DNA of 50,916 nucleotides from Mesotaenium endlicherianum (lineage: Eukaryota): the NCBI GenBank assembly GCA_009602735.1, contig WELA01000805.1, positions 745,115 through 796,030 on the forward strand, read 5' to 3'. This document shows positions 5,641 through 50,916 of the stretch, one piece after another (positions within the stretch are counted from its first letter, which is position 1; each line of letters begins with the position of its first letter). The notes beneath the pieces were generated by a model that searched no databases, had not been told where the DNA came from, and saw only the letters and a program-made list of their open reading frames with translations. Both the position numbers and the translations under genes were made by a program.

Positions 5641-26197
<20,557 letters not shown>

Positions 26198-27974: not shown

Positions 27975-30497
27975 AGATGGGGAATGACCCTGGTTGTGTG
28001 GTGTACTTGAAAACAGGGGGCAGCACACAAGTACACATTACAAAGCTAACACTTGTAATCAATGAACTTAGCGCTCTTTCTACTAGCACGGTGTCCATAC
28101 GTACCCCCAACACACTAGACACAATACTTCCTCTTCTCAGCTTCTGTAGGAAAGTACCTTCCACTGAATCTGCCTTCTAGTGTAGGTTTTGTTGCTGCTA
28201 CCCTGGTTGCCATTCCACTAGGTCCTCATGAAGGTTATTAGAAAGAGCACATGTCATCCATGATGTCCATGTAATTGTCTAATCTGTCTGCCTTTTGGCT
28301 GCACCGTCTTGTACATGATAAAGACATTGGCAAGAAGGCCATAAATGCCCCAATATACCTTGTGCCACCACTTCCTGTTGACTAAGCCTCTCTTAGCACT
28401 GTAACCTTTTCCAAACAATATGCATCAAGCTGTACATATTGTAATGCTCAACTAGCTCAAGGGCTGCAATTTTGAGTTTTTCTTTTTTCGTTGCGCCAAC
28501 TCTGTATAGTCGGAGCCAGCCCTCTGGCTGTTGACAAGAAAGCACATGGAGCTTTATTATTCCACACAGTTGCTACCATAGGGGGCTGCTCATTGTAAGT
28601 TGCAAGTGTGTAGCCTTTAGGGTGGGTATCATGTACAACTACTGCTTAAGATAGTTCTTTCTAGTAGATACTATAGTGCCTGTGGTTCCGTGTCCTAGCT
28701 GTGCAAGTTTAGAAAAGAGGTGAGGAGAGCTGAAGTCTTTGTTAAGTATGAGAGTTAAGTGTTTGCTACTAAGTCTAACACAAAATCAATCTTTGCACCT
28801 TTCTTTCATTAAACTCTATTATATATGATGAAGGCATAGCATAAATATGTGTTTACATCACAAACTCTGAAGACTCATATACCATATGAAAGGGGGAAGG
28901 ATGCGGAGAGTGCGCCTATACACACTCACGCACCCTCACCCGCGAGTGGAAGCGTGCACGAGGATCTTTCCTAGTCGCATGCACAAGGTGGAGTGGCCTG
29001 GTGATATGCCACCCTTGCAAGAGTTAGAGAGGTACATGAGAGCGGAGGAAGAAAAGAACTCCCTTCATTAAGAAAAGTCGTGTACAAGATAAAACAAGAT
29101 TTGGTAAGACTAGACTAGACAAGACTAGACTCCATCTTCTTCTTTATGCTTCCTATTTATGCTTCAACTCTAAGTGTCCTCTCTAGCAAAATACCTCCAA
29201 AACCTTATACTATGGCTCCTCTCATGTAGGTGACCTTGCCTTGTTGGACAAGCTAGCACACTTACACGCACACAATCACACTCTAATATTCTACTACACA
29301 GTCCACTAACACCTCACGGAGTTTCTAGAAATTACACTATCATTTTGGCACTCTACGTAATCAATTGTACGTGTTTTTGGAACCATCATGATTTAGTGTC
29401 CCACTCCTTGGACTCCAAACGAAGTTTTCGTCAGTGGACCTGTCCTTGTCACTATCCGTGACATTTAAGATTCATTAAAAACTCTCAAAACTCATAACTT
29501 TCTCAATACTTATCCAAACAAATTGAAACACAGTTCAATATTCTTCTATAATTACGCTCTATGCATATAAAATGCTAAAAATTTACAAAGTACACTTTCA
29601 TGACCATACACCATATTTGTATGGCTTAGATGCATAATAGACTCTAACAGGACATCGTCAATGGTTCTCTCATCCACTGTGAGAGTACTAAACAAAGTTT
29701 CTCTATGCACAAATCTGTAAAAGGTTGCAATTGCCAAAGCTTGAATGCTCTAGAGTCTGTAATAAACAATCTTATTGTCTGTTGTTTCTGACATGAAAAA
29801 TCTTCTTATTTGTTTAAATCTATTCTTACTCATGAACCTGCCAAAGGTCAGGAGAGTGATAGGCGCTTTCACTGTCTTCTGTCGTTAACTCTTTAGCCTA
29901 GGAAGAGCATGTAGCTCCATAGCCATGCACAATCCATGGAAGACAACCATCTCTGTGCATGTCACAGGACTCCAACCCTTCACACTGTGTTGTGATGCAT
30001 AGTTGTTTGTCTCCACAGCCAAATATGGGAAGAAAGCATTAGGTATGAAGAGACACAACATGTCAAAGGGACTTATACTTTTAAATCTCTTGTCTCGAAT
30101 GCCTTGGAGGTCATGGTCGTGGTTTTGACTTGGTTGCAACAGGTCTTCATAACAGTTGTCTCTTGGAGCAGGCACCTTCCAATTCCATACTCTTCAAACT
30201 CCTCCTCCTCCTCCTCCTCCTCTACTATATTTACTATAAGAGGAGCCTCCTCTGTGTCTTCAAAATCCAAGAAGTCTTTTTCTTTAATGCTGCTGCTGTC
30301 AGGCCCAGACTCAGAGTCCAGATCACTTCTTTTTCTTCCTTACTAAACATTGACTTTCCTTGAAACATGAACTTACTTCTTACTGCAAGGGCTGCTATTT
30401 TAATTGAACCTGTAGATGTGCCCCTCTTCTTGCTACGTTGACTGACAGTAAGACTAGATTCAGGGTCTTGCATCTCTGTACTGACTTGTGTCTTCAT
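27975..30497 (-). pseudogene. Decayed piggyBac (PGBD/DDE_Tnp_1_7) transposase
   Basis: Minus-strand segments occur in the canonical order: acidic N-terminus; SPFDMLCLFIP..AVETNNYA..WSPVT..EM; FGRFMSKNRFKQI; TVDERTI; RCPVRVYYASKPYKYG|I*VFRVCD; NKDFSSPHLF..LGHGTTGTI..RKN; MVATVWNNKAPCAFLSTA; VEHYNMY; RKWWHKVYW; C-terminal Cys-rich domain KRKYCV*C...YKC*LCNVYLCAAPCFQVHH. Many stops and frameshifts. TIRs were not identified. Confidence 0.85.
28887..29610. mobile_element. Solo LTR (724 bp) inserted in the piggyBac transposase
   Basis: Ends TGAAAG...CATACA with a perfect 5-bp TSD CCATA (28882-28886 and 29611-29615). Removing it restores the transposase KYG motif. Confidence 0.85.
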
Positions 30498-30666: not shown

Positions 30667-32833
30667 AGGCGTACGCTATGAGATCGAGTGTGCATCATCG
30701 GTATACAACACATATCAAACAAGCAGACTTTGCTACAATATAGTCAAAATTACATGTGGCTTTATAGCCAAAAAAGGGAGTCAACCGTCGAATGTTTATA
30801 TTTATAAGTGTGTACTATCCAGAGCAAGCACCTCAAGACTGTATATTGGTAAAAGAACAATCACTGAAGTATGGTCCAAAAGATCACTAGAAGTCCATGG
30901 TCTGATCTTTGTAGAGTAGTCTCATGCAAGGATTTAAGCTGTGACTTTTCTCACCACTTGTGAAGTTCTTCAAGTGATTGGAAGCCAGAAGGGCTTGTTC
31001 TTCACAAGAGAGACTAGTGCACCTAAAAACACAAGAGATAGAAGTGTAAGTTTCACTGATAACTCTGTTACTTACAACTTGCCATGGTGCACTCTTAAAA
31101 AGATGTCACACTAGGTACATCTCTACTACTTTATACTCTTGGAAAATTGGCGTGCAATGCAGCGGATTCAATGCACGATGTCACTTTAGGAAGCTCTTAT
31201 ATGTCCACAAATGTGTGCAAGGCACGTACTAGCTCTTCTATAGGTGTCGTGCGTTACGAGGTCGGGTGCAAGGAGTGTGTACTCTCGAGAGTGAGCACCT
31301 CAAGATTGTGATCGGGTAGGAAAACAACTAATGAAGTATGGCCCAAAAGATCACTGGAAGCACATCATGATCTTCAAGAGTAGTCCTATGCAAGAGTTTA
31401 AGCTGTGACTTTGCTCACCACTTGTGAAGTTCTTCAAGTGACTGGAAGCCAGGAGGGCTTGCTCTTCACCAGAGAGAGACTAAGTGGTCCTGAAAACACG
31501 AGAGATAAAAATGTAAGCTTTACTGATGATCTCTGTCATTTACATTTGGCATGATGGACTTCTAAAGATATGGTTCTCTAGGGTGATCTCTAGTACTTAT
31601 ACTCCTGGAAACGCGGCGTCGTATGCGGCGGATCCAATGCATGTAGTCACTCTAGGAGGCTCTCTTATGTCCACTAATGTGTACAAGGCATGTACTAGCA
31701 CTCCTATAGGCTAAGCATAACTCAAACCAATCAAAGAAGCACGTAGAATATGCTACGTGTCTCTCATTGGTGGAGCTTACCTTGGGTGATTCTACCTAGA
31801 TAGCGCCTCAAAAGTGGATTTGGAACTTGAGGAAACTTCCTCAAGGAGTAGGTGATGCAGTCACCAAGTTATAGCCTCAATGATGCACTTATAATATGGA
31901 AATGTAAGACTTATATAGCCTAAGGGGCTCGCGGGTTTGTGCGCACAAAGCAAAGGGTCCTTAGGGTCACGAATAACGAACAATGTCACCTTTCGGTACA
32001 TTGAGTCACAAATTGGCCGTTGGGTGTAATTCCGCTAGGGGCCAAAAAAGGGTGCGGACTAGATCGCGCCTATCTTGCTCGATACTTGACCAAATGACGC
32101 GAAACCGGTGCCATTCGGAAGATGCTTCAACGCGCTACACATTAGTAACTTGGAAATCTAGAAAAGATCAACATATGGATGCGTAAAGTCAATGCAAAGT
32201 TGGTCTTCCTCGGTTGATGGTTCACACATGTGGAGCTCGATTTTGTACGCCAACCTCGACTTAATAAATCATGACATAGGCTAGGCATAACTCAAACCAA
32301 TCAAAATTAGATGCAATGAGTATGCTAAATGCTTCTCATTGGTGGAGCTTACCTTGATCAATGCTACCTAGATAAAGCCTCAAAAGTAAATTTGGAGGAA
32401 GCTTCCTCCAGGGTTAGGTGATGCAGTCACCAAGTTATAGCTCCTATGATGCACATTTATCATTGAAATGCAAAGATTATGTGGTCTAAGGAGCTTGCAA
32501 ATTTGTGTGCACAAAGCTAAGGGTCCTTGGGGTCACATATAGCCAACAATGTGACCTCTGGGGCTCAAGTTGGTCTCTGGTGACATTCCGCTAGGGGCCC
32601 TCTTGGTGGTGCAAACTAGATCGCGAATATCTCGTTCGATACTTGACCAAATGACGCGAAACCGGTGCCATTTGGGAGGTGACTCGACGCGCTACACTTT
32701 AGTGACTTGGAAATCTAGGGGAAAAAAACATATGGATACGTAAAGTCAAATGGAAGTTGGTCCTCCTTGGTTAATGGTTTATACTTGTGTAGCTTAGTTT
32801 TGTGCATCGACCTCGACTCAATAAATTATGACA
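30667..32833 (-). mobile_element. Short non-coding X+Y element, older copy (contains nested copy 31245-32276)
   Basis: The right end reads TGTCATAATTTATTGAGTCG on the minus strand. The left end aligns, with decay, to the CACGACA end of the family. Flanked by TTTT on both sides (30663-30666 and 32834-32837). Confidence 0.75.
31245..32276 (-). mobile_element. Short non-coding X+Y element nested in a copy of its own family
   Basis: Plus-strand ends TGTCGTG...CATGACA with a 4-bp TSD TAGG (31241-31244 and 32277-32280). Removing it rejoins the host copy. Confidence 0.88.
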
Positions 32834-35449: not shown

Positions 35450-35610
35450 AAACGTTTCCGGTCACAATCTTTGCCTTTTGGCGTAGATATACCATTTTTG
35501 CATGTTGTTTCAGAGATCATGTTCTTCAATTTCCTCATGTAACGTAGAAAAAATTGTCTACGCCCTTGGCGGAGATGGGCGTAGATCCAATTCCTGGGGC
35601 GTTTTTCGGA
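35450..35610 (-). repeat. Dispersed repeat F, inverted copy
   Basis: Reverse complement aaaaacgccccaggaattggatctacgcccatctccgcc matches 36026 onward and 41086 onward. Confidence 0.75.
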
Positions 35611-36020
35611 GTTGGTTCATATTTTTGGCCAAACCGATTTCAGAGTGTGCTCTGGGCTATATAGTGCTACTAAACTTTGAATTTGCAACTCACGTGTAGA
35701 CGTTGGCAATATGTTCCAACTTAGGAAATTGTCGTGAGGTAAGAAGAGGAACAAACGAAGGCGTTGCGAGTGAAAAGCAATAGAAAAATGAGTATCAACA
35801 TATCACGCTCATATATCATATGTATTTACCAACTTCTTCACTCTAGAAGTGGTCCACGGTGCGACATATTTCAGGATCCCTACGATTTACTAGCAAGCGG
35901 TTGGGAAGTGCCCTAGGTCCTTAACATGATTCATCACGTTTTTTGGGACGCTCCCTAAATTGTAATATCAGGGTTCACAAAGTAGATTCGTTTGCATTCT
36001 GAAATTGGTTTGGGCCCGGA

Positions 36021-36860
36021 CGCCCAAAAACGCCCCAGAACTAGATCTCTCCCCATCTCCGTCCAAGGCTTATACGGATATTTTCTCCACTAACCCAGGC
36101 AAAGACGGAGAAAATGACATCTCCGCCACAGGCGGAGATGGTATTTCTACGCTCAATGGCAAATATTGTGTCTCTGAACAAATCTTCACCTTTGCCAAAA
36201 CTGTCAAAAAATGGCGAAGTATGGAAAGCCAATCCGAAAATGGTCACTTTCAAAAATGGTCATGGAAATTGACCACTTTGTTGTAAATGGTTAGTGCAAT
36301 TGGCCAAGTGTGCCAATAATGTTATTGTAGATCAATAAGTTAAAACAAATGAGAGGTTGACTCCCAATTTCACTTTGTTTGAGTTCGAGTCGTGGGGTGG
36401 CGGAAGTGATATGCACGTTTATTGGTCGAAAAATTGCGTAGTCGCACTGTGCATGGTCGCTCGTGGTCGCTCGGGCTCACGACAAATTAAGAATGGCCTG
36501 ATTGGCCCTAGCCTTTACGAGGAGCCCAAAGTCGACGGGTGGTAGGGGTACTTCTAACAAGCCTGTCCCCACTTGGCTTCCCCTCGCACCCCTGCTTCAT
36601 TCCTATTGGTCAACAATAGGTTGGTACCGAGGGGGGCTCTAACAAGCTCGTCCCCCTTGGCCCGGTCCCTTATATCAGCGCCGAGGGGGAGAAAGTCCTT
36701 GCCTCCCCCTTGCATGTGATTGGTCGAGGGCCGTAGGGTGTCCTTATTGCTGGTACACCCGTGGCCGCTCGAAAGATAATAAGTTATTTGTTTTCATGCG
36801 AGATGTGGGGAAGTGTGTCGTGGCCAAAAATCTGTTGCCACCAAGTCGCCCGCCGTGGCC
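36021..36860 (+). repeat. Dispersed repeat F (unclassified element end)
   Basis: cgcccaaaaacgccccagaact...ggcggagatggtatttc...aaaaatggtcatgg...tggtacacccg is collinear with 41081-41740. Confidence 0.7.
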
Positions 36861-36924: not shown

Positions 36925-38192
36925 TGTCATGATTTATTGAGTCGAGGGCGTCGCACGTACCCGTGCTTCAAGCGTGTGAGCGATCAACCTCGGACAAGCA
37001 TTTGCCTCTTTGAATTTGTGTGATTTAGTCTATTATGTTGCTATGCTTGCATGCCTAGGGTATAGATGCCACGTGACAAGTCAACACTTGACACATGCGC
37101 TAGACCTACTTTAGGCATCAGGTACAAGTCACCGCCCGCTTGGTCCCAAGTAGCAGCTCAAGCTACCCGGCACTTAGGAGACAGTGCCTAAGAAGGCCAC
37201 GTGGCACCACCGGAAGGTGGCGGGCTCCAGTTTTGGCCCATGTCCCCCTCTCTGCCCGTCATCAAGCAACAGGAGCCACCATGGGCCACGTGGAGCCACC
37301 GGAAGATGGCGGGCTTCACGACTTGGCCCGGGTACACTTACGTACCCGTCACTCGGGCCCAGGCACTCCTAAGTGCCCGACACTCAAATGGCGAGGCCAC
37401 CAAGGGCACCCAGGGCCACCGACCGACAGCTGCAGCCCGTCGGTTGGCCCATGCGCACCCGACCAAGATGTGCTCAGCCGACAGGAACCGTCACAGCCTG
37501 CAAGAGTACCACAGCTTAGCGGGCAACCGTCCGATTGCACAAACATAAGTGTGCAAGCTTGTCTTACAAGCTTAGCATGTGCTAAAGTGAGCTCGACCTA
37601 TCACACGCATTTAGCATATTCTAGCATCTCGCTTTTGATTGGATTGAGTAGTAACTAGCCTATTGGAGCGCAAGCACAATAGGTACATGTGTGTGCGTGT
37701 AGAGGTAGATCTTAGATGAAGACTACATGCATTGAATCTGCGCCTAACGCGCCGGGTTTCCAGGATTATAAGTGCTAGAGATGTCCCTAGAGAGACATCT
37801 TTTTAGAAGTCCCATTATGCCAGTTGTAAGTCAGAGAGATTATCAGTAAAGCTTACACTTTTATCTCTTGTGTTTTCAGGACCACTTAGTCTCTCTCTTG
37901 TGAAGAGCAAGTCTTGCTGGCTTCCAGTCACTTGAAGAACTCTACAAGTGGTGAGCAAAGTCACAACTTAAACCCCTGCCATAGGACTACTCTTGAAGAT
38001 CATGATGTGCTTCCAGTGATCTTTTGGGCCATACTTCATTAGTTGCATTCCTACCGATGAAAACATCCAACGCTTGCCTCCCTCTTTGGCTATAAAGCCA
38101 CATGTTTTGTAGACTTCATTGCAGCAAAGCCTGCTTGCTTATTATGCATTGCTTGTGTCGATAGTACGCACCCGACCTCCTACCGCACGACA
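36925..38192 (+). mobile_element. Short non-coding X+Y element (1268 bp)
   Basis: Ends TGTCATG...CACGACA with a 4-bp TSD TCGT (36921-36924 and 38193-38196). 36925-38057 is collinear with 45189-46388 (X) and 38058-38192 with 50646-50779 (Y). Confidence 0.92.
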
Positions 38193-39277: not shown

Positions 39278-40930
39278 TGTAAGCGGACGCAAAGTGGTTG
39301 TTGACTTTCAAAGTAATGAATATGTATATTAATAGATATCATAATCTAGTAATTGTAGTAGTTTATTGTGCTGAATTTTAGCCCGCTATACTTTTAGTAA
39401 TATTCAATATAATGACTCATCCGATAGCGGCAGGCTTAAGTCAACTTACGTCAGCTTGTTGACACATTCTTTGATAGCCAGCTGACCGCCTTAACCCGTA
39501 CTAGCGAATTGCCTAGTATTGCTTCTAAGTGTGATATGCAAGATAAATGGCCAAATGACGCCTTGGGCGGATGGCGATTCGAGATGATGGGAGATGGTTG
39601 TGGATTTGGTTAGCCGAGGTCCTATTGACGTGGTTAAGTCCTATCCAACTCCGGGTAGGTGGTACCATCGCAGTTGCCGTTGAAGAGTAAACTCATTCCA
39701 TGTACATATACTAGAATTGCTTTCGAGTTTGACATTCAGAAAACTCTTTGTAGAGACTACTGAGGGAACATCTGAATCCAAATCTGCAAGTCGTTATACA
39801 ATTTGCTTACTAATATTGCTTATGTATGAGTGAATTGATTGCATTATTGATACTCCTTACTTGCATTTGACTTGAAGAGATTACTTACGCTAGTTGTGTC
39901 TTCTTCTGCTATTTAATGAGTTACCAAAAAATACCACAAAAAATTACTTATTGATATAAAAATCTTGTATTAATCGTTAATTGATTATAAGTAAGTTGAT
40001 TCATTTCAATAGTATCGAAGCTCTTATCACAATTCTCTTTGTATGGTGACGATGCGGTCTTAAATTTGCAACTCTCAAAATATGGAGGGTCAGAATAATA
40101 GTAACATGGAAGGTCGGTCAAAGAAACGTGAAGAAGAAATGTGTACCTACGCTGAGGATATTGCGGCTAGAGAAGCTAGAGAAGTCGAGGAGACTGCGCA
40201 TCAGCCATAGCCGCAATAGCAGCCCAGCAGGCTAAGGAAGAACGTGTCTGAAGAAAAGCTGAGCGTTGAGCCATGGTAGAAGAGGACACGGAAGCAGAAG
40301 GAAGGTGTCTTGCTGACGCCATGACGATGGAAGAAATGATGGCTGAAAGGGCCAATCATTTAAATCCACCTCATGTTGTACCTGCTGATGTACCTCTTGC
40401 TCAAATTTGCAAGCAGCTGAGCGAAACGGGGATTGCTAATGCAACAGCAAGAGGAAATGCTGAAGCAGCTGCTGAGTGAGCCAATGTTGTTGCTGTTGCT
40501 GTTGCTAGGTTACCACCCCAAAATGTGGACACTGGTGCATTGTTCATTCAGATGTAGTTACAAATGAACAATAAATATGAGACCCAGCAAGATGATAAGA
40601 GGATGTTGATGACTATGCTGCAAGGGAGGAACCAATTGGATTCTTAAATTGATTGCAGGGCAATAGCCGAGGGCTTAGTAGGCCAAAGCCAAAGGCTCCT
40701 CGGGACTATAAAGATGAAAGAAACAAGAACAATTATTTGATCAAATTTCTTGGTGATGTTGGTTGGAGAATTATCCCGACTCGCAAAACTCTGAGAAGAT
40801 CAGGCAAAGTGGTGCTTTGCTGAAAGGTAGCGCAGCAGATTGGTGGCTCTTCTGGAAGGAAGAAAAGAAAATAAATCAACTTGATGATTCCATGTGGGAG
40901 GAGTTTGTGAAAAAGTTGCATGATAAGTCT
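39278..40930 (+). mobile_element. Truncated, decayed Ty3/gypsy-type LTR retrotransposon (5' LTR, PBS, gag fragment)
   Basis: Candidate LTR TGTAAG(39278)...TTTCA(40008), followed by TAGTATCGAAGC, a 9/12 match to the tRNA-iMet PBS TGGTATCAGAGC. Then a broken ORF with gag-like EKIRQSGALLKGSAADWW...MWEEFVKKLHDK. The LTR start is tentative. Confidence 0.65.
40082..40930 (+). pseudogene. Retrotransposon gag fragment
   Basis: E/A/R-rich coiled-coil-like start, then PKPKAPRDY and the L.G.A..WW...W..F capsid motif. Multiple stops and frameshifts. Confidence 0.7.
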
Positions 40931-41080: not shown

Positions 41081-41740
41081 ACGCCCAAAAACGCCCCAGA
41101 ACTGGATCTACGCCCATCTCCGCCCAGGACGTAGACGGTTTTTTCTTCCCTAAGCTAGGCAAAGGTGGAGAAATGGACATCTGCACGATAGGCGGAGATG
41201 GTATTTCATTGCTCAAAGGCACAGATGTTGTCTAGGAACAAATTTTCATCTGGACCAAAATAGTCGAAAAGTCTAAGTATGGCACAATGGCAAGCCTTTC
41301 AAAAAATGGTCATGGTCGTTTTCCAACTTCGTTTCCAAGAGTTAAGTTGCTGAACATATAATGTTATTGTGACCACGTAGTCCAAAAAACTTTGAAAAAA
41401 GAAGCAAAAGGTACAACTTGTCAATGGTCCGAGATTGGCCGACCACAGTCGACCGGCTAGTTACTTGGACGTGGCCCAAGTCGTGGGCTGGCGGAAATGG
41501 GATTGACAAATCCGTCCCCCCTTGTTTGTTCCCTTTTGGACTTTCTTGTCAGCGAGGGGGGGTCCTCGCTTGTCCTTGACCCCCTCCTTATCCATGATTG
41601 ATCGTCGGGCAAGCATGGTCGTCGTTGTTGGTACACCCGCGGCCATGTTGTCAGGTCGATATATTTAGTTGACGCAAATTTGCGTCATGAAATCACGTTA
41701 TTGTGTCGGCACGGCTTGCTTGCCGTGCCGTTCAACTCAG
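41081..41740 (+). repeat. Dispersed repeat F, second direct copy
   Basis: Collinear with 36021-36860; interrupted at 41741 by an X+Y element. Confidence 0.7.
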
Positions 41741-42290
41741 TGTCGTGCATTAGGAGGTCGAGTGCGCATCAGCAGCATAAGCAATACACAAATGGGCAAG
41801 TAGGCTTTGGTGCAATGGAAGCGGAAATGCATGTGGTCTTAAGGCCAAAAAGAGGGTCAACTGTTAAATGTTTTAAGGCTGTAATTTGGTAGGACAACAA
41901 TTAATGAAGTATGGCCCAAAAGATCATTGGAAGCACATCATGATCTTCAAGAGAAATCCCTTGGCAGAGGTTTAAGCTTTGACTTTGGTCACCACTTGTG
42001 AAGTTCTTCAAGTGACTGGAAGCAAAGAGGGCTTGCTTTTCACAAGAGAGATTCTAAATGATTCTGAAAATACGAGAGATAAAAGTGTAAGCTTTAATGA
42101 TACCTCTGCTACTTACAAATGCCATAATAAACTTTTATAAATTTGGCCTTCGAAGGGCATCTACTGCTATATACTCCCTGCAAAACCAGCGCTGAAGGCG
42201 GCGGATTCAATGCACACAGTCACAATGGGAGGCTCTCCTATGTCCACGAAAATAGAGGCAAGGCGCGTACTAGCTCTTCTATTGGCTAAA
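41741..42290 (-). mobile_element. Truncated X+Y element
   Basis: Starts with tgtcgtgcattaggaggtcg (the Y end) and continues through the block gaagtatggcccaaaagatca...caccacttgtgaagttcttcaagtgactggaagc shared by all copies. The other end was not found. Confidence 0.8.
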
Positions 42291-42857: not shown

Positions 42858-45188
42858 CGAAATGAATCTTGCCTTATTCAAGATATATATTTCATTTAAA
42901 TATACAAGATCAGAGCTATATAGAAGCATGTAATTGAGGGAGCAATCTTTGCCCTTACAATGAATTTCGTTTACTCACCTCTACCCCTTGACTCACTTAT
43001 CGTAGTGTGCCATAGTCTTACACTAACTCAAGGCATATGAAAAGTAGGAACTTGAGGACTAGAGCTTCTCCTCTAGAAAATCATGGCATTTTCCCTAACA
43101 AGCATACAAGCATGTATAAGCGCATACATAACATCAGAGGATTGAATAGCAAAGGCGTTCTCATTCAAATGACCATAATGTAGCTAAATCACATCTTACT
43201 GACAAAAATGAATCTTGCTTATTCACAATAAATATATTTCATTTAGGTATATAAGATCAACGATAGGTGGAAGCGTGTAAAATCAAGGAGCGATCTTTGC
43301 CCTTAGAATGAATTCCGTTTACTCATCTATTCCCCTTGACTCACTTACCGTAGTGTGCCATAGTTGCACACTAACACAAGGCACAAGAAAGAGGCGAGCT
43401 TGAGGACTAAAGCTTCTCCTTTAGAAACTCATGGCCTCTTGCCTACCAGGCATACAAGCATGTATAAGCACATACACAACACCAGGGGCTAAATAGCAAA
43501 GGCGCTCTCATTCAGATGACCATTATGTAGTTAAAACACATGCCACTGACTTAGGTGCAAAACTATGGAATCTGTTCGCTATGTGACCCCAAAATGTCAA
43601 AAAGGCATAACTCTGTCAATACTTCTCCAAATTGAGCACACTTAATGGAAATGGACGCATCTTGACAAGACCTTTTCAAAAAGTTCTAGTTCGCTCCATT
43701 TGCAGCACAGACAAAGACGCCATGTCAATTTCCGTGAAAGCTGGTCATAATAACGAACCCAAAAGTGCACACATCACTTGCAAGAAGAAAATTCGACTCT
43801 AAAGCCTCCTGTCCAGATTGAGGGACCACGAGATCCCAGCCTGCTATGTACCTAGTGACCACCTGCTTGACCACGGCGCAAGGTGCGCCGTTTCGTGGGA
43901 AACCCGTTATGTTGAGACCCACGGATCTAGGTATAACGACCATATTATTGGTCGGTTGACTGAAGTCCTAACTGTTCAGTTGATTGACAACGGCTCCGCT
44001 TACCCAGGAGTTAACCACACTGGTAGGACATCGGTTTACCAAATCTAGTCAACCTCCCGACTTTCAGTATACTACGATCACATGTGCCAATCTACAAATA
44101 ATAATACAAATGAATATATATATTCTCAGCGTACCGAAGCTAAGTATATTGACTAATATCAAACGAGCTTACTATATGTCAACCTACTGATATTATATCC
44201 TATACATATCTGATAAATAAATCTCAGCAAAGTATACTATGATACAAAAGTCATCCTGCTGACCTTTTCATCAAAGTCAGCAAACTACAATATGATACAA
44301 AAGTCATCCTGCTGACCTTTTTGACAAAGTAAGTAAATTCGCATTATATCGACATACATTCATTTAGATGAACTCGCACATGAAAGTATATTGACATAAT
44401 ACTTATTTAGTGCTGTATTTATACATGCAAATAATTAAATAAATAATGAACTGATTCATTACACTGACTTAGGTGCAAAACCATGGAATTTGTCCACTAT
44501 GTGACCTCGAGACATTAAAATAATAACTCAGTCAATACTTAACCAAATTGAGCACAATTAACAACAACGGCCGCGTCTCGACGGTGCTTCCAAATAGGTC
44601 TTGGTTGCTTAATTTGGTGCGCAGACGAAGACGCCATGTTCATTTAAGGAAAAGCTGGTCATAATAACGAACCAAAAATGCCGCACATGACTTGCAAGCA
44701 GAAATCCGATTGTAAAGCCTGTTGTCCGATATGAGGGACCACGAGCTCTCGGCCTGCTAGGTACCTAGTGACCACCTGGTTGACCACGCGTTAAGTTGGG
44801 ATCCACGGATCTAGGTGTAACGACCGTATAAATTGGTCGGTTGATCAAAGTCCTAATTGTTTAGTTGACTGACGACAACTTCGCCTTCCCAGGAATTGAC
44901 CACACTGGGAAGACATCGATTTACCGAATCTCAGTCGACCTCCCAACTTTCAGTATACTACGAATTGGTCACGTATGTCAATTTACATATAATTATCTAA
45001 ATGATGACATCTATCCTCCGCGTACTTAATCCAAGTGTACTGACTATTATTATGCGAGCTTACTATATATCAACGTACTAATGTTATATTTTATATATAT
45101 TGACAATCTGAGCAAACTTTACAATGATACAAAAGTCATCCCGCTGACCTTTTTCACAAAGTGAGCAAATTACACTATGAGACAAAAG
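42858..45188 (+). mobile_element. Family D solo-LTR-like element, outer copy (interrupted by 43204-44463 and again at 45189)
   Basis: 42858-43203 plus 44464-45188 is collinear with the inner copy. Contains 53-bp sub-repeats (gatacaaaagtcatcctgctgaccttttt). Confidence 0.65.
43204..44463 (+). mobile_element. Family D solo-LTR-like element, inner copy (1260 bp)
   Basis: Ends (aaa)AATGAATC...GATTCATTACA, with the first three bases of the left end degenerate. Flanked by CTGAC (43199-43203 and 44464-44468). Confidence 0.7.
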
Positions 45189-46487
45189 TGTCATGAATTA
45201 TTGAGTCGAAGTCGTTGCACGTACCCGAGCTACAAGCGTGTGAGCGATCAACCTCGAACGGGCACTTGCCTCTTTGCATTTGTGTGATTTAGTTTATTAA
45301 GTTGCTATGCTCGCATGCCTAGGGGATAGATGCCACGTGACAAGTCAACACTTGTCACGTGCGCCAGACCTACTAGACGCACCAGAGGTACGGGCCGAAT
45401 ACCCGTCCAAAACTGGACGGTGGCACTTGACTTTGTTTTCATAGCCACTACAGGCCGCAGGGACCCAAGCGACAGCCCGAAGCAAAGGCAACAAGGGTCG
45501 AGGAGGCCACGTGGAGCCATCGGAAGGTGGCGGGCTTCTGCGCTTGGCCCAGGCTCACCCGGCAGCCAGCCCGAGCACTTGATTGTGCTCGGCGCCAAGC
45601 GACGGGAGCCACCGAGGCCACGTGGCGCCACCGGAAGGTGGCGGGCACCTTAAGTGGCCCAAGGGCACTTAAATGCCCGTCACTCGAGCCCAGGCACTCC
45701 TAAGTGCCCGACACCCAAGTGGCGAGGCCACCAAGGGCACCCAGGGCCACCAACCGACAGCTGCAGCCCGTCGGTTGGCCCATGCGCACCCGACCAAGAT
45801 GTGCTCAGCCGACAGGAACCGTCACAGCCTGCAGGAGTACCACAACTTTGCGGGCAACCGTCCGATTGCACAAACATAAGTGTGCAAGCTTGTCTTACAA
45901 GCTTAGCATGTGCTAAAGTGAGCTCGACCTATCACAAGAATTTAGCATATTCTAGCATCTCGCTTTTGATTGGATTGAGTAGTAACTAGCTTATTGGAGC
46001 GCTAGCACGATAGGTATATGTGTGTGTATGCAAAGGTAGATCTTAGATGAAGACTACATGCATTGAATCCGCGCCTAACCCGCCGGTTTTCCTGGAGTAT
46101 AAGTACTAGAGATGTCCCTAGAGAGACATCTTTTTAGAAGTCCACATTATGCTAGTGGTAAGTCACAGAGATCACCAGTAAAGCTTACACTTTTATCTCT
46201 TGTGTTTTCAGGACCACTTAGTTTCTCTCTTGTGAAGAGCAAGCCTTGCTGGCTTCCAGTCACTTGAAGAACTTTACAAGTGGTGAGCAAAGTCACAGCT
46301 TAAAACCCTGCCATAGGACTACTCTTGAAGATCATGATGTGCTTCCAGTGATCTTTTAGGCCATACTTCATTAGTTGTATTCCTACCAATTTATAGTTTT
46401 GAGGTGCTCACTCTGGAGAGTACACACCCCTTACTCCTAAAAAGATCTCTCTTTGCTTCGCTTACAAGCATTTAGAATCTTCAGCGT

Positions 46488-49400
46488 ATGCCTACTCGTA
46501 GTGGGCTCACTTATCAGCCTTACAACGAAAGGGTTAGTGGGGAAGACTCAGACTCAGATCTCAGTGCCATCACTGAACCTTCTGAAGGGGATTATCAAGT
46601 GCCTCTTCAACCTGTAGCTGTCATTGAGCCACAGCCTCATTGGACTTACATTGATCTACAGAGCTCTATGGCTGGAGACCAAGATACGAAGGTAGATAGG
46701 GCCTCTCTCTTCCGTTTCAGCGGTAGGCCATGCACCTGTGATCTGGACGACACCATTTCTGAGTTCGAGGCTGACTTTGAGAACGCAAAGCTCAAGACTC
46801 CTACGCTCACCAAACGCCAGGTGTTTGGCACGCTTATGCGTTACTTTCTTCACGAGGCTCGCGACACCTACCATGAGAAGTCGGCTGAGATCTACGCACG
46901 CACAGAGCCCGTGGGGGACCCGCCAGTGGATACCCCCATATTTGATCTTGTCCAGGCCTTCTAGAACGTTCTCAGAGAGGAGTTTCAGTCTGCCACCGAA
47001 GAGAAGGTGTACGAGCTGCACCGCTTCTACCGCCGCAAGGATGAGACGATTCGCATGATGTACCGGCGCCTGACCCACCTACGACGAGATGTGGGCACTG
47101 TTACCGACCGGGAGGCTGTGGAGATCTTCTTGCGAGCCATCGATCCGCGTCTGAGGGAGAGGGCCATCGCTCCTCTCATTGATCGCGCCGGCGTCGACTA
47201 CACGCTGGAAGACGCCTGCAAAGCTGTAGAACGTCAAAGTCTGGCTGCCGCACGGAGCAACATCAGTGATCGTGTGGGCTTGGCATCCACTGGCATACGC
47301 CAGGAAGCACCGGTGTTGCCCTCCTCGACAGCACGCGTTGCTCCTGCCCGCCAGCATCAGCAACAGCAATCGCAACGCTCGCAGTTGCCAGCACAGACCC
47401 AGTCTCACAACGCGCCACGTGGCCGTATCTCCATGGCCGCAACGACGGGCGACCTTTGCTGGGCATGTGGAGAGACGGGCCACACACGTCGTGAGTGCAC
47501 TCTGGCGCAGAACGGCAAGCCAGGCGACTGCACCTACTGCGGCAAGGCAGGCCATTTGCAAGTCGTATGCTTGCAGAAGCAGCGCGACACGGAGGTTGGA
47601 CGCGCTCATGATGATCCTGCGCCCTCTTCAGGCCAGCAAGACATGCAAAACCCTCGCATAAGAGGACGCCCCACAATCACGGCAGCCACGGCTACGACAA
47701 ACGCCGCGTTGACCCCCAGGGAGGACATCTTCAACTATGACAATCTCAGCGATGCGCTAGCTGCGTCCGAGGCGGAGAACGCGCGACACCGCGCCCTATT
47801 CGCAGCCGACAGCTTCGACGCCTGCGGAGCCTTGAACGCGCACACACTCCCGGCCGACGCTGTGGCACTGACATCTGGCGACAACGCAGCACGTGCACGC
47901 ACGCCCAATGCCGACATCTGGCAGTCCCTGCGCCGGCCACATGCCGCAGCAGCAGTGTTGCAGCCATGCGCTCGTCCGCATTACGACAGAGCGCCTATGA
48001 CGACAGCTACGGCTACAACGAATGCCGCGCTAATCCCTGGGGCCGACTATTGCAGCTTTGACGACATTAGCGATGCGCTCGTGGAGGCCAATGCCGAGAT
48101 CGCGCGTCTACGAGGCCTCTGTGTCGCCGACAGCTATGATGCGTGCGCAGCGCAGTTCATGCACAATCCTTCGATCGACGTTACAAGGGTAACATCCGCT
48201 GGTGGCGCAACTCTTGCGTGCACTCCCAGCGCCGACATTAGGTAGCCAGAGTGCCTGCCAAGTTGTGTAGCAACAGCGTTGCAACCACGCTCATGTTCGC
48301 ATGACGACGAAGCGCCTACGACGGGAGCTGCAAGCGCCGACGGCGATGCGTCTACAGTCTCAACGCACCTCGCGCTGACACCTCTCAGCTGCGAGAGGGT
48401 ATGCGCCAACGCGTTGACAGATGGCAGACCCCAGGCCTGCGCAGCTCTGGAAGCCCACGCTGCACACGACCCCACTGACGGGTCGATGCTGCAGCTACGC
48501 GCACGTCCGCACGACGACGAAGCGCTCTCGACGAGGGCTGCATTCGCCGACAGTGACGCGTTTGCAGATCCATCGCGCCCGGCTCTGACAGCTATCAGCA
48601 GCAACAGGGCGGGCCTCGACAAGCTGACAGGTGGCAGGCCCTCGGCCTGTGCAATCCTGGCAGCCCACGCTGCACACGGCCCCGCTGACGGGTCAACGCA
48701 GCCGCCTCGCGCACGTCCGCACGACGACGGAGCGCCCATGACGAAGGCCGCAGGCACCGACATCGACGCCTATGCAGGCCCGCCTCGCCCCGCGCTGACA
48801 CCTGTCAGCAACGACACGGCGAGTACCAACAGGATAATCGGTGGCAGGCCCAAGGCCCGTGTAGTCCTGACAGTCGACGATGCGAGCGTACCCACTGACG
48901 GGTCCCCGCAGCAGCCAGCGCAGCCCGCAAAGGCGTCGACACACGCGCCCTTAGCGTTCGCTGCCCTGATGGAGCCAGCAGGGCTGCACAGCGCATGTGC
49001 AACGACAGGTGACGCCCTGACGCGGACCCGCCAGTCGGTCATTCCGGCTGCAGCTTCAGCAACCATGCGAGTTACGGGCGCGCGGACGTGCCCAGTGTTG
49101 CGGACGAGCACGCAGCCACGGGACAGCCGCCCGCTGCTGGCTGCTGCTAGCAACAGGTCCCAGCGGTCGCCGCCACGTATCGCGCACACGCTGGCCAAAG
49201 CGCCGACCTTCGGCAGTGGCATGGCCAGGCGCACACGCCCATCTATACCGACGCAACAAGTTGCTCAACGCACGTTCGGCAGCAGCGCAGTCGACACAGC
49301 TCCGACACCAGCTGCGCACAGCAATTGCGCACATGGCGCAACACCGGCAGCCAACGACGCGGACGGCTCCTATGTTGCCACGCGCCCTACCACAGCATCT

Positions 49401-50588
49401 CCAGCCTGGCACAGGTCTGGGACAAACCTGCCGCAGGACTGGCAGAAGTCTGGCAGAGGTTCAGGCCAAGTTGGGAGTAGGCTAGGCACAGGCCTGGCAG
49501 AGGTTCGACACAGGTCCGGCTCGCACCTGCTTGCAGCCGCCGCAACTACGCCCTCTCGTCGTTCCACGCACGCCTCGACCACCTTCGTCTGCCACGCACG
49601 CACGCTGCCACTTGGCAGGAGCGCAACAGCCGCCAAGGCACCACGCAAGCGTATGCTGCTGACAGCAGCCGGTCGGCCAGCAGCCTCACACAAGAGAAAT
49701 GGGCCTGACTAGGGACGCCGCACAGAGGAGGCACCACGTCTTCCGCGTTCCTTCCGCGTGCTCGAGCCGCCGCCAGCGCCTGTTGCTCTCGCGCCTCACG
49801 CGCTCGCCTCGCCTATGACGATGGTGCAGCTGAACGCTGAAGTCATCTCCCTGGCCTTGCACCGCATGATAGCGGTCTCCTTCGCAGACCTTGGAGTAAC
49901 GCTGGAGGCGACGAGGCAGGCAGCTCAGCTGCTGCTGCAACCTCGCGGTGCCGGTCTACACACCGCCGCGGGCAAGCCAGCGTCCGACGCCGCAGCCGCG
50001 GTGCTCTCTGCACCCGCGCGATCTGCGCATGAGCGCAGGATGATAAGCAATCCTAACGCTGCCTTTTTGGATAACGCGCAGGGGATCGTGCTCGTCAACA
50101 CTCAGGCTCCGCAGCGGATCATGTTCGACATGGGCGCGCAGCCGGTCCTCATTAGCCTCAGCTACTTCCGACGGCTGGGCCTTTCTTCGAACGACTTGGA
50201 GGATTTGCCGACGCGGATCAACACGGCAGCTGGCACCTCCGAGTTCGTGACCGGGCGCACACGACTGGCGCTTCGCTTCACCTTCAGGCCAGGGACAGCG
50301 GACGAGACAACCATCCATCGGCACGCCCTCGTGACTCGCTCTGAGACCTTTGACGTCCTCTTGGGACAGGAGGTGCTCTTTCCCATCGGCGCCGCGGTTG
50401 ACAACTGGACCGAGCGCGTCCAGTATCGGCCCGACTGGCGTTCAAGAGGAACCCGCACGACTTCTTTGCCGCTTGACATCGTGGACCGACGTCCGACCAT
50501 GACCACTCTCTACGGCTTCCACGTCGGCTGCCCAAACCTACAACTGGCGCACGTGCCAGCTGAGACTGGTTCTGTCGCAAGTGCTTAG
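46488..50588 (+). pseudogene. Gag (two CCHC zinc knuckles) fused to a retropepsin-type aspartic protease; no RT, RNase H or integrase
   Basis: Four ORF-track entries lie in one frame, separated by single TAG codons (46962, 48243, 49710). Motifs: gag-like F.NVLREEF...ETIRMMYRRL; CWACGETGHTRREC (47457); CTYCGKAGHLQVVC (47529); protease IMFDMGAQPVLIS...FDVLLGQEVL (D at 50127). Confidence 0.9.
47670..48920 (+). repeat. In-frame tandem repeats within the gag-PR ORF (2 x 321 bp, then 3 x 210 bp)
   Basis: TATTNAAL recurs at 47688 and 48009. HDD(E/G)A recurs at 48300, 48510 and 48720. Confidence 0.85.
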
Positions 50589-50627
50589 CGTTAGCACTAG
50601 GCAGCAAGAGCTCATCAGCTGGAGGCT

Positions 50628-50643
50628 GAGAGCTGGGGGGGGG
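50628..50643 (+). other. Polypurine tract (plus-strand primer) candidate
   Basis: gagagct followed by G9, then AT and TGAAAC, directly downstream of the ORF. Confidence 0.7.
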
Positions 50644-50841
50644 ATTGAAACATCCAACACTTGCCTCCCTTTTTGGCTATAAAGCCCCATGTATTGTAGA
50701 CTTCATTATAGAAAAGCCTGCTTGCTTATTATGCATTGCTTGTGTCGATAGTACGCACCCGACCTCCTATTGCACGACAGCTGTCATGAGTTATTGAGTC
50801 GAAGTCGTTGCACGTACCCGAGCTACAAGCGTGTGAGCAAT

Positions 50842-50916
50842 TGTAATGAATCAGTATATTAGTAGATATAATATTCATTTAAATATAATAGTTAATTTAG
50901 TTCACCCTGCTGAACT
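50842..50916 (+). mobile_element. Left end of a family D-related element inserted in the second X repeat
   Basis: Begins TGTAATGAATCAG, the reverse complement of the D end at 44451-44463, and shares ttcatttaaatata with about 42890. X homology stops exactly here. Confidence 0.65.

Follow-up and report, generated by a model that had tools for sequence, protein, structure and literature searches.

In the textbook account, linear cDNA is what LTR retroelements integrate, and circular forms are regarded as by-products or dead ends. According to the available text of PMC1180852, the two strands of the LTR-LTR junction are each cut after CA by the foamy virus integrase, which leaves 5' AT overhangs. 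The same text calls the circle-precursor model for retroviruses unsubstantiated; a similar junction-cutting activity in vitro is described for HIV-1 integrase (available part of PMC1905944). IS3 and IS256 circles carry abutted ends with donor-derived spacers, as stated in the accessible text of PMC9587614, and self-priming of reverse transcription has been described for Tf1, Tj1 and Tcn1 (excerpts of PMC4600332 and PMC6317226). De Mendoza and colleagues reported KnitGypsy-Dnmt3 from Klebsormidium nitens, in which DIRS-like repeats accompany Gypsy domains (Fig. 4c legend, PMC5890265), and the available main text of that paper does not contain the words 'junction', 'circular' or 'target site'.

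The element considered here lies in a 50,916-nucleotide stretch of DNA from Mesotaenium endlicherianum (hereafter the window, meaning the whole stretch analysed) and has the layout A1-gag-protease-PPT-B1·GC·A2, where PPT is a polypurine tract; its termini are A and B instead of identical direct LTRs, and its repeats are split. It shows the A1-coding-B1-A2 order, and solo A-B copies of it are present. KnitGypsy-Dnmt3, in the part of the paper available, combines a Gypsy domain set with DIRS-like repeats and has a Dnmt3-like domain, whereas the window copy is without DNMT, reverse transcriptase (RT) or integrase; compared through the published description, the window copy is probably a non-autonomous relative of it. 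Ngaro, PAT and Viper share A1-ORFs-B1A2B2 split repeats, an internal end-to-end junction and solo AB repeats with the window element, but unlike them the latter has a protease, a PPT, a primer site, TG/CA ends and variable 4-bp duplications, with an rve integrase in a relative. The palindromic CA-NN-TG of the foamy virus and HIV-1 2-LTR junctions is also present here, and the integrase cutting seen there is predicted here; the retroviral junction forms only on ligation of true cDNA ends, whereas that of the window element is encoded inside the repeat and kept in integrated copies. A primer site complementary to the predicted RNA 5' end, a PPT, gag and protease are common to the window element, Tf1/Sushi and Tcn1, although the last two, as far as the available text of PMC4600332 and PMC6317226 describes them, integrate by the ends of ordinary LTRs. 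Similarly, the copy-out-paste-in circles of IS3/IS256 and KolobokP resemble the proposed circle in having abutted ends with a short spacer as a DDE substrate, but in the accessible part of PMC9587614 these are DNA transposons with a variable spacer from the donor flanks, whereas the window spacer is fixed and would be reverse-transcribed. The open literature searched contained no account of a Gypsy LTR with an internal att junction, nor of the mechanism proposed here.

Recurrence of the CA-GC-TG junction

The initial annotation had described a CA-GC-TG junction with a 2-bp spacer, forming a perfect palindrome inside an imperfect inverted repeat, and the sequence agrees with this description. 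The junction CACGACA-GC-TGTCATG is centred at 50780-50781, with CA at 50778-50779 and TG at 50782-50783, and GACAGCTGTC is a perfect 10-bp palindrome across it. Symmetry holds at 13 of 21 positions outward from the centre, and a perfect 10-bp palindrome combined with at least 13/21 symmetry occurs at 5 of the 24,872 possible centres between 26 and 50.9 kb; this level is uncommon and by itself not decisive. The wider palindrome is the imperfect terminal inverted repeat of the element with its two ends brought together. A hairpin or cruciform role for the palindrome was considered and rejected, as single-stranded folding was no better than that of shuffled sequences (z 0.36).

Within the window, the left motif opens five copies and the right motif closes four, and a further match to the end motif at 11108, with 7 mismatches, is due to chance. 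Inserted copies terminate exactly at the TG/CA ends of the junction and have variable 4-bp target duplications, two of which are clean and different (TCGT, CCTA) and one degenerate, with two copies unscorable. The GC is indeed missing beside every other inserted end in the window, where left flanks end in CGT, AAG, AAA and CTA and right flanks begin with TC, CT and CC.

Recurrence was measured on contigs and reads of public sequencing runs aligned to 50692-50841. At the contig level, the expectation that the same junction and spacer would be found at many loci was borne out: the junction is crossed by five of the eight listed contigs of run X1 (200 X1 contigs aligned) and by four of seven from X16, which comes from another study and bears another organism label, and all but one of the crossing contigs show 4-18 differences from the window copy. 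The GC spacer is invariant in both DNA runs, with no other letter reaching at least 10% at 50772-50789 among the 24 variant rows listed and no indel listed at the junction in X1 or X16. No contig among those listed carries 31 letters on both sides of the junction, as strict bridging would require, the best having 28 and 57. Summed X1 contig depth is 28,000 at 50767-50771, 55,000-63,000 across 50772-50796 and 14,000 at 50802-50806, compared with 52-54 for contigs leaving into a single flank; short high-depth contigs therefore span the junction, these sums being distinct from copy numbers and X1 possibly being the source sample of the window itself. In addition, 17 X1 contigs leave at 50779 and four enter at 50782, all with unrelated flanks, and the same letters therefore also serve as insertion ends. 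None of the 22 RNA reads on 50692-50841 (6 from X19 and 16 from X22, of which about 6% and 13% were read) crosses the junction; ten reach 50779, nine of them continuing into one common flank. Scanning metagenomes with a loose junction pattern returned 117 loci, none of them similar to the element by BLAST, and the viral and prokaryote sequence collections gave no junction match.

The junction thus belongs, as a fixed feature present in many copies, to a retroelement of the Ty3/gypsy type. The initial annotation proposed that a eukaryotic retroelement here retains its att junction uncut, and this is supported by the recurrence of the junction, by the invariant spacer and by the identity of its two halves with the true element ends. 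The junction is probably a standing part of the LTR, as opposed to an isolated relic of cDNA ends that became ligated.

Element anatomy and candidate reverse-transcription signals

The coordinates of the element, its solo copies and its predicted signals are collected in Table 1. The internal region of 4.2 kb consists of one reading frame with three stops, in which Pfam matches to zf-CCHC (E 3e-6, about 47457-47501) and Asp_protease_2 (E 3e-6, about 50094-50372) were found, and the Atlas neighbours are Retrotrans_gag and Ty3_capsid. The CCHC gag with aspartic protease and the TG...CA termini with a 4-bp duplication are Ty3/gypsy features that the window element has, while the PR-RT-RH-IN order is absent from the window copy and present in its relatives P0058/P0153. 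No RT, RNase H, integrase, DNMT or tyrosine recombinase was detected in the 48 ORFs scanned (at least 85 aa, 26.2-50.9 kb, 50 listed), and a six-frame scan with RT, integrase and recombinase motifs gave only chance-like matches; judged from its sequence, the window copy is non-autonomous. There was no PDB match, and word-based protein searches returned nothing; no Rfam family was found in 26-50.9 kb and no tRNA gene in the window.

Table 1. Positions of the element, its solo copies and its predicted signals in the window
Feature	Position	Strand	Evidence or remark
Older A-B solo, split by the nested copy 31245..32276	30670..32833	-	right end degenerate; possible AAAA duplication
A-B solo, most of B deleted	31245..32276	-	lies within another copy; 4-bp duplication CCTA
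A-B solo copy, 1268 bp	36925..38192	+	4-bp duplication TCGT
Partial A-B copy	41741..42285	-	left part lost
A1, left arm (starts TGTCATG)	45189..46432	+	left end motif and flank; putative distal U3, R and U5 of the 5' LTR
TATA-like box	46098..46103	+	no other TATA-like match in A1; lies 23 nt upstream of the predicted RNA 5' end
Predicted RNA 5' end and self-primer	46121..46141	+	pairs with 46433-46453; start predicted solely from the TATA box
Predicted self-priming primer binding site	46433..46453	+	begins at the A/internal boundary
Gag-repetitive linker-aspartic protease frame	46488..50588	+	three in-frame stops; ORF map
Polypurine tract ending in a G run, then AT-TG	50620..50643	+	purines 20/25 over 50620-50644
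B1, right arm (ends CACGACA)	50644..50779	+	four other window copies; putative proximal U3
GC spacer of the att junction	50780..50781	.	invariant among contigs; would form the 2-nt 5' overhang at each cut end
A2, initial 60 bp of a second A arm, interrupted thereafter	50782..50841	+	58/60 identical to A1
LTR of another, conventional family (starting TGTAATG)	50842..50916	+	inserted in A2; unrelated flanks before 50842

A1 is 84.6% identical to the copy at 36925, and no meaningful similarity was found between A and B, whose longest match is 11 nt. B2 is not visible, as the LTR at 50842 interrupts A2 and the window then ends. The layout extends beyond this locus, since in X5, a run from a different study, a 3,470-nt contig covering 47247-50726 begins in gag and reaches B by way of the protease and PPT, and a second contig runs from A into gag (46403-46765). 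An ordinary LTR consisting of A plus B was rejected, because the internal region sits between A and B both here and in the X5 contigs. Three tandem units of 210 bp, together with a longer repeat that is imperfect, lie in the linker between gag and protease (48280-48929 and 47676-48329), and contig joints show copy-number variation of these repeats among family members.

The TATA-like box is kept in all five copies in the window. The segment at 46433-46453 pairs with 46121-46141 at 18 of 21 Watson-Crick positions (19 with G-U; -19.1 kcal/mol), and no other of the 4,192 internal 21-mers complements A as well. The pairing would fit self-priming of the Tf1 type, although the duplex of about 21 nt is longer than the 11 nt of Tf1. 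The conventional LTR family at 50842 has the same PPT-AT-TG geometry; about 50 X3 contigs join it via a purine-rich flank followed by AT, and about 100 contigs per run join it through unrelated flanks. In the window element, the primer site lies at the inner end of A, 1.24 kb away from the TG end, and the PPT at the inner end of B, 136 bp away from the CA end. Because the predicted primer site lies directly after A and the PPT directly before B, reverse transcription is likely to build an LTR of the form B·GC·A, in which 136 bp of U3 precede the att junction. A junction placed inside the LTR by these signals would thus be copied in every cycle and would serve as a programmed cut site.

Two further observations concern the vicinity of the predicted transcription start. 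A 7-bp inverted repeat at 46110-46131 surrounds this start and overlaps the self-primer, and TGTAA occurs 56-59 nt past the TATA box in four of the five window copies (46150-46165 and equivalents). TGTAA was not adopted as a poly(A) signal, a reading that would put R within A, given that UGUAA is, according to the available text of PMC1868727, absent from streptophytes. B holds a TATAAA hexamer.

The A-B joins vary. In the four window copies, A ends at 46390, 46396, 46427 and 46432, that is, at 46432 or up to 42 nt earlier, and B starts at 50648, 50645, 50648 and 50755, one of the four joins having lost most of B; in addition, 3 of the 15 contig joints listed (156 further) connect 46425-46431 to 50643-50668. 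The A-B joins are imprecise at the ends that would be set by reverse transcription and B·GC·A is invariant, as the end-joining of linear cDNA into a 2-LTR circle predicts. Copying would need B·GC·A at the 3' side with a CA end beyond it, which, we infer, could be obtained only from a 2-LTR circle or a concatemer.

The enzyme class was approached through relatives of the protease. A HMMER search with the protease ORF returned 164 relatives, 150 of them listed, and 84, with longer ones favoured, were scanned for domains together with one cluster member (thresholds 1e-3 and 1e-4). A C5 DNA methylase is present in 14 of these 85, and the cluster P0058/P0153 has the order CCHC-protease-methylase-RT-RNase H-rve integrase (P0058 E 1.2e-9), this integrase-bearing relative being distant from the window copy, at 29% over the protease. 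None of the 85 matched a tyrosine recombinase family, an enzyme that would be a separate ORF. Among 20 relatives looked up, those with a name come from Closterium, Coleochaete and Calypogeia, and one Closterium gene model among the relatives has copia-type domains. The domain content suggests that DNMT-bearing Gypsy relatives extend well beyond Klebsormidium. Neither the viral nor the prokaryote collections gave a protease relative, and 80 loci kept from the viral and prokaryote-type search were set aside, as they match the methylase part of the query only.

Long gag-protease-methylase proteins in which RT had no match were also seen (P0013, P0031 and P0011, with P0036, P0040 and others in the set); one gag-protease-methylase protein is from Closterium, and protease-only relatives are from Coleochaete and a liverwort. 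Two contigs, X5 record 17 and X9 record 24, match the protease and then run on with about 1,070 and 390 nt of sequence that does not resemble the window; these are possible relatives with the missing pol domains.

The neighbourhood is rich in other repeats. The conventional TGTAATG family, high-copy by its contig flanks, is found at 50842-50916, 43204-44463 (-) and 39313-39367, and at 43204-44463 a solo of 1,260 bp, with a 5-bp duplication, lies inside sequence of its own family; the family can act as a control from the same genome. A DDE_Tnp_1_7 transposase remnant (29885-30193, -; E 1.7e-6) adjoins the nested solos, a dispersed repeat occurs in both orientations at 35463-35612, 36020-36224 and 41081-41282 with 70-88% identity, and a host ORF with a double-stranded RNA binding motif (25040-26197, +) lies at the edge of the repeat-rich block.

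Proposed cycle and competing readings

The CA-GC-TG junction is likely an integrase cut site inside the LTR, where we infer cleavage, and that a DDE integrase cuts a programmed junction is the part of our reading in which we are highly confident. The full model, in which self-primed cDNA forms a 2-LTR circle whose internal junction is cut by a DDE integrase, seems to us reasonably probable. Here we propose that the RNA starts in A1 near 46121, reads through the junction and ends in A2, that its 5' end pairs just past A and primes the minus strand, and that the plus strand starts at the PPT. The resulting linear cDNA would be B·A-internal-B·A, whose ends are not att sites and would be joined end to end into a 2-LTR circle, this joining creating the imprecise A-B join. 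A DDE integrase supplied by an autonomous relative would then nick after each CA of one junction, yielding two recessed CA-3'OH ends with 5' GC overhangs that might be inserted with a 4-bp stagger. Cutting at the junction of the 5' LTR would give A1-internal-B1·GC·A2-B2, in which the uncut junction is kept and can be copied again, and the A-B solos could arise through A1/A2 recombination or through double cutting.

A DDE integrase might also act on an element copied in the manner of DIRS and Ngaro, with an RNA running from A1 to B2, template switches at B1·A2 that rebuild a one-junction circle, and an inherited A2-B2 join, before the integrase cuts the junction. We consider this unlikely. The A1-ORFs-B1A2B2 layout and solo AB repeats are those of Ngaro as the available text of PMC8547959 gives them, the TATAAA in B could be a poly(A) signal, and one X3/X9 joint is nearly precise; however, the end of A and the start of B coincide exactly with a conventional primer site and PPT, and the A-B joins differ in all four window copies and in three contig joints while B·GC·A is invariant.

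Quite unlikely, in our view, is a unit A-internal-B that derives from 1-LTR circles or doubly cut linear cDNA, with uncut junctions only in head-to-tail tandems and the solos being internal deletions. A single cut of a 1-LTR circle would yield A-internal-B directly, the A-B breakpoints do vary, and what follows A2 is beyond what the window can show. Random deletions in an internal region of 4.2 kb, on the other hand, would not gather at its primer-site and PPT boundaries, and the published layout of the probable relatives is DIRS-like, A-coding-B-A-B, in the legends of Fig. 4c and Fig. 1e of PMC5890265, as far as that source was available.

A tyrosine recombinase (YR) retrotransposon of the Ngaro/PAT type, for which the junction would be a recombination site, is very improbable, even though split direct repeats are named a hallmark of PAT, Ngaro and Viper in the accessible part of PMC4157794 and no integrase gene is seen in the window. 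YR elements are, in the available text of PMC3783388, without aspartic protease and integrase, and a protease is present here; DIRS-type recombination makes no target duplication according to the available text of PMC3266345, against TCGT and CCTA here. Moreover, the 4-bp duplications are unrelated to the GC spacer, the ends are TG/CA, and a relative carries an rve integrase.

A chance adjacent or double insertion at one locus, conceivable in a region packed with nested elements that include two self-nested insertions, has a negligible probability, as the same junction and spacer recur in many diverged contigs from two runs and two organism labels, the spacer, at 2 bp, differs in length from the 4-bp duplications, and A1 and A2 are identical at 58 of 60 positions.

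Implications for retroelement integration

The DIRS-like layout of a Gypsy element has a one-line precedent, and the mechanism proposed here would be new for LTR retroelements. If the integrase-cut 2-LTR circle is correct, an element with its ends pre-joined inside the LTR would need a DNA circle, and the published one-line oddity of a Gypsy with DIRS-like repeats would be explained. The junction also represents a defined natural substrate of 20-40 bp for junction cleavage by DDE integrases, an activity for which the case has until now come from work in vitro on foamy virus and HIV-1. Given that LTR-finding programs require identical terminal repeats, they would miss such split-repeat elements, and split repeats would, if the model holds, no longer be proof of a tyrosine recombinase.

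We lean, by a small degree of confidence, towards a broader proposal, namely that a self-primed Ty3/gypsy lineage of streptophyte algae and liverworts moved its att sites into U3 as a pre-joined CA-GC-TG, with the 2-LTR circle as the obligatory substrate and the DDE integrase acting on it as a site-specific endonuclease. If true, this lineage would represent a convergent origin of Ngaro-like split repeats independent of a tyrosine recombinase, a third integration route for retroelements, and a natural case of the circle-precursor model once put forward for retroviruses.
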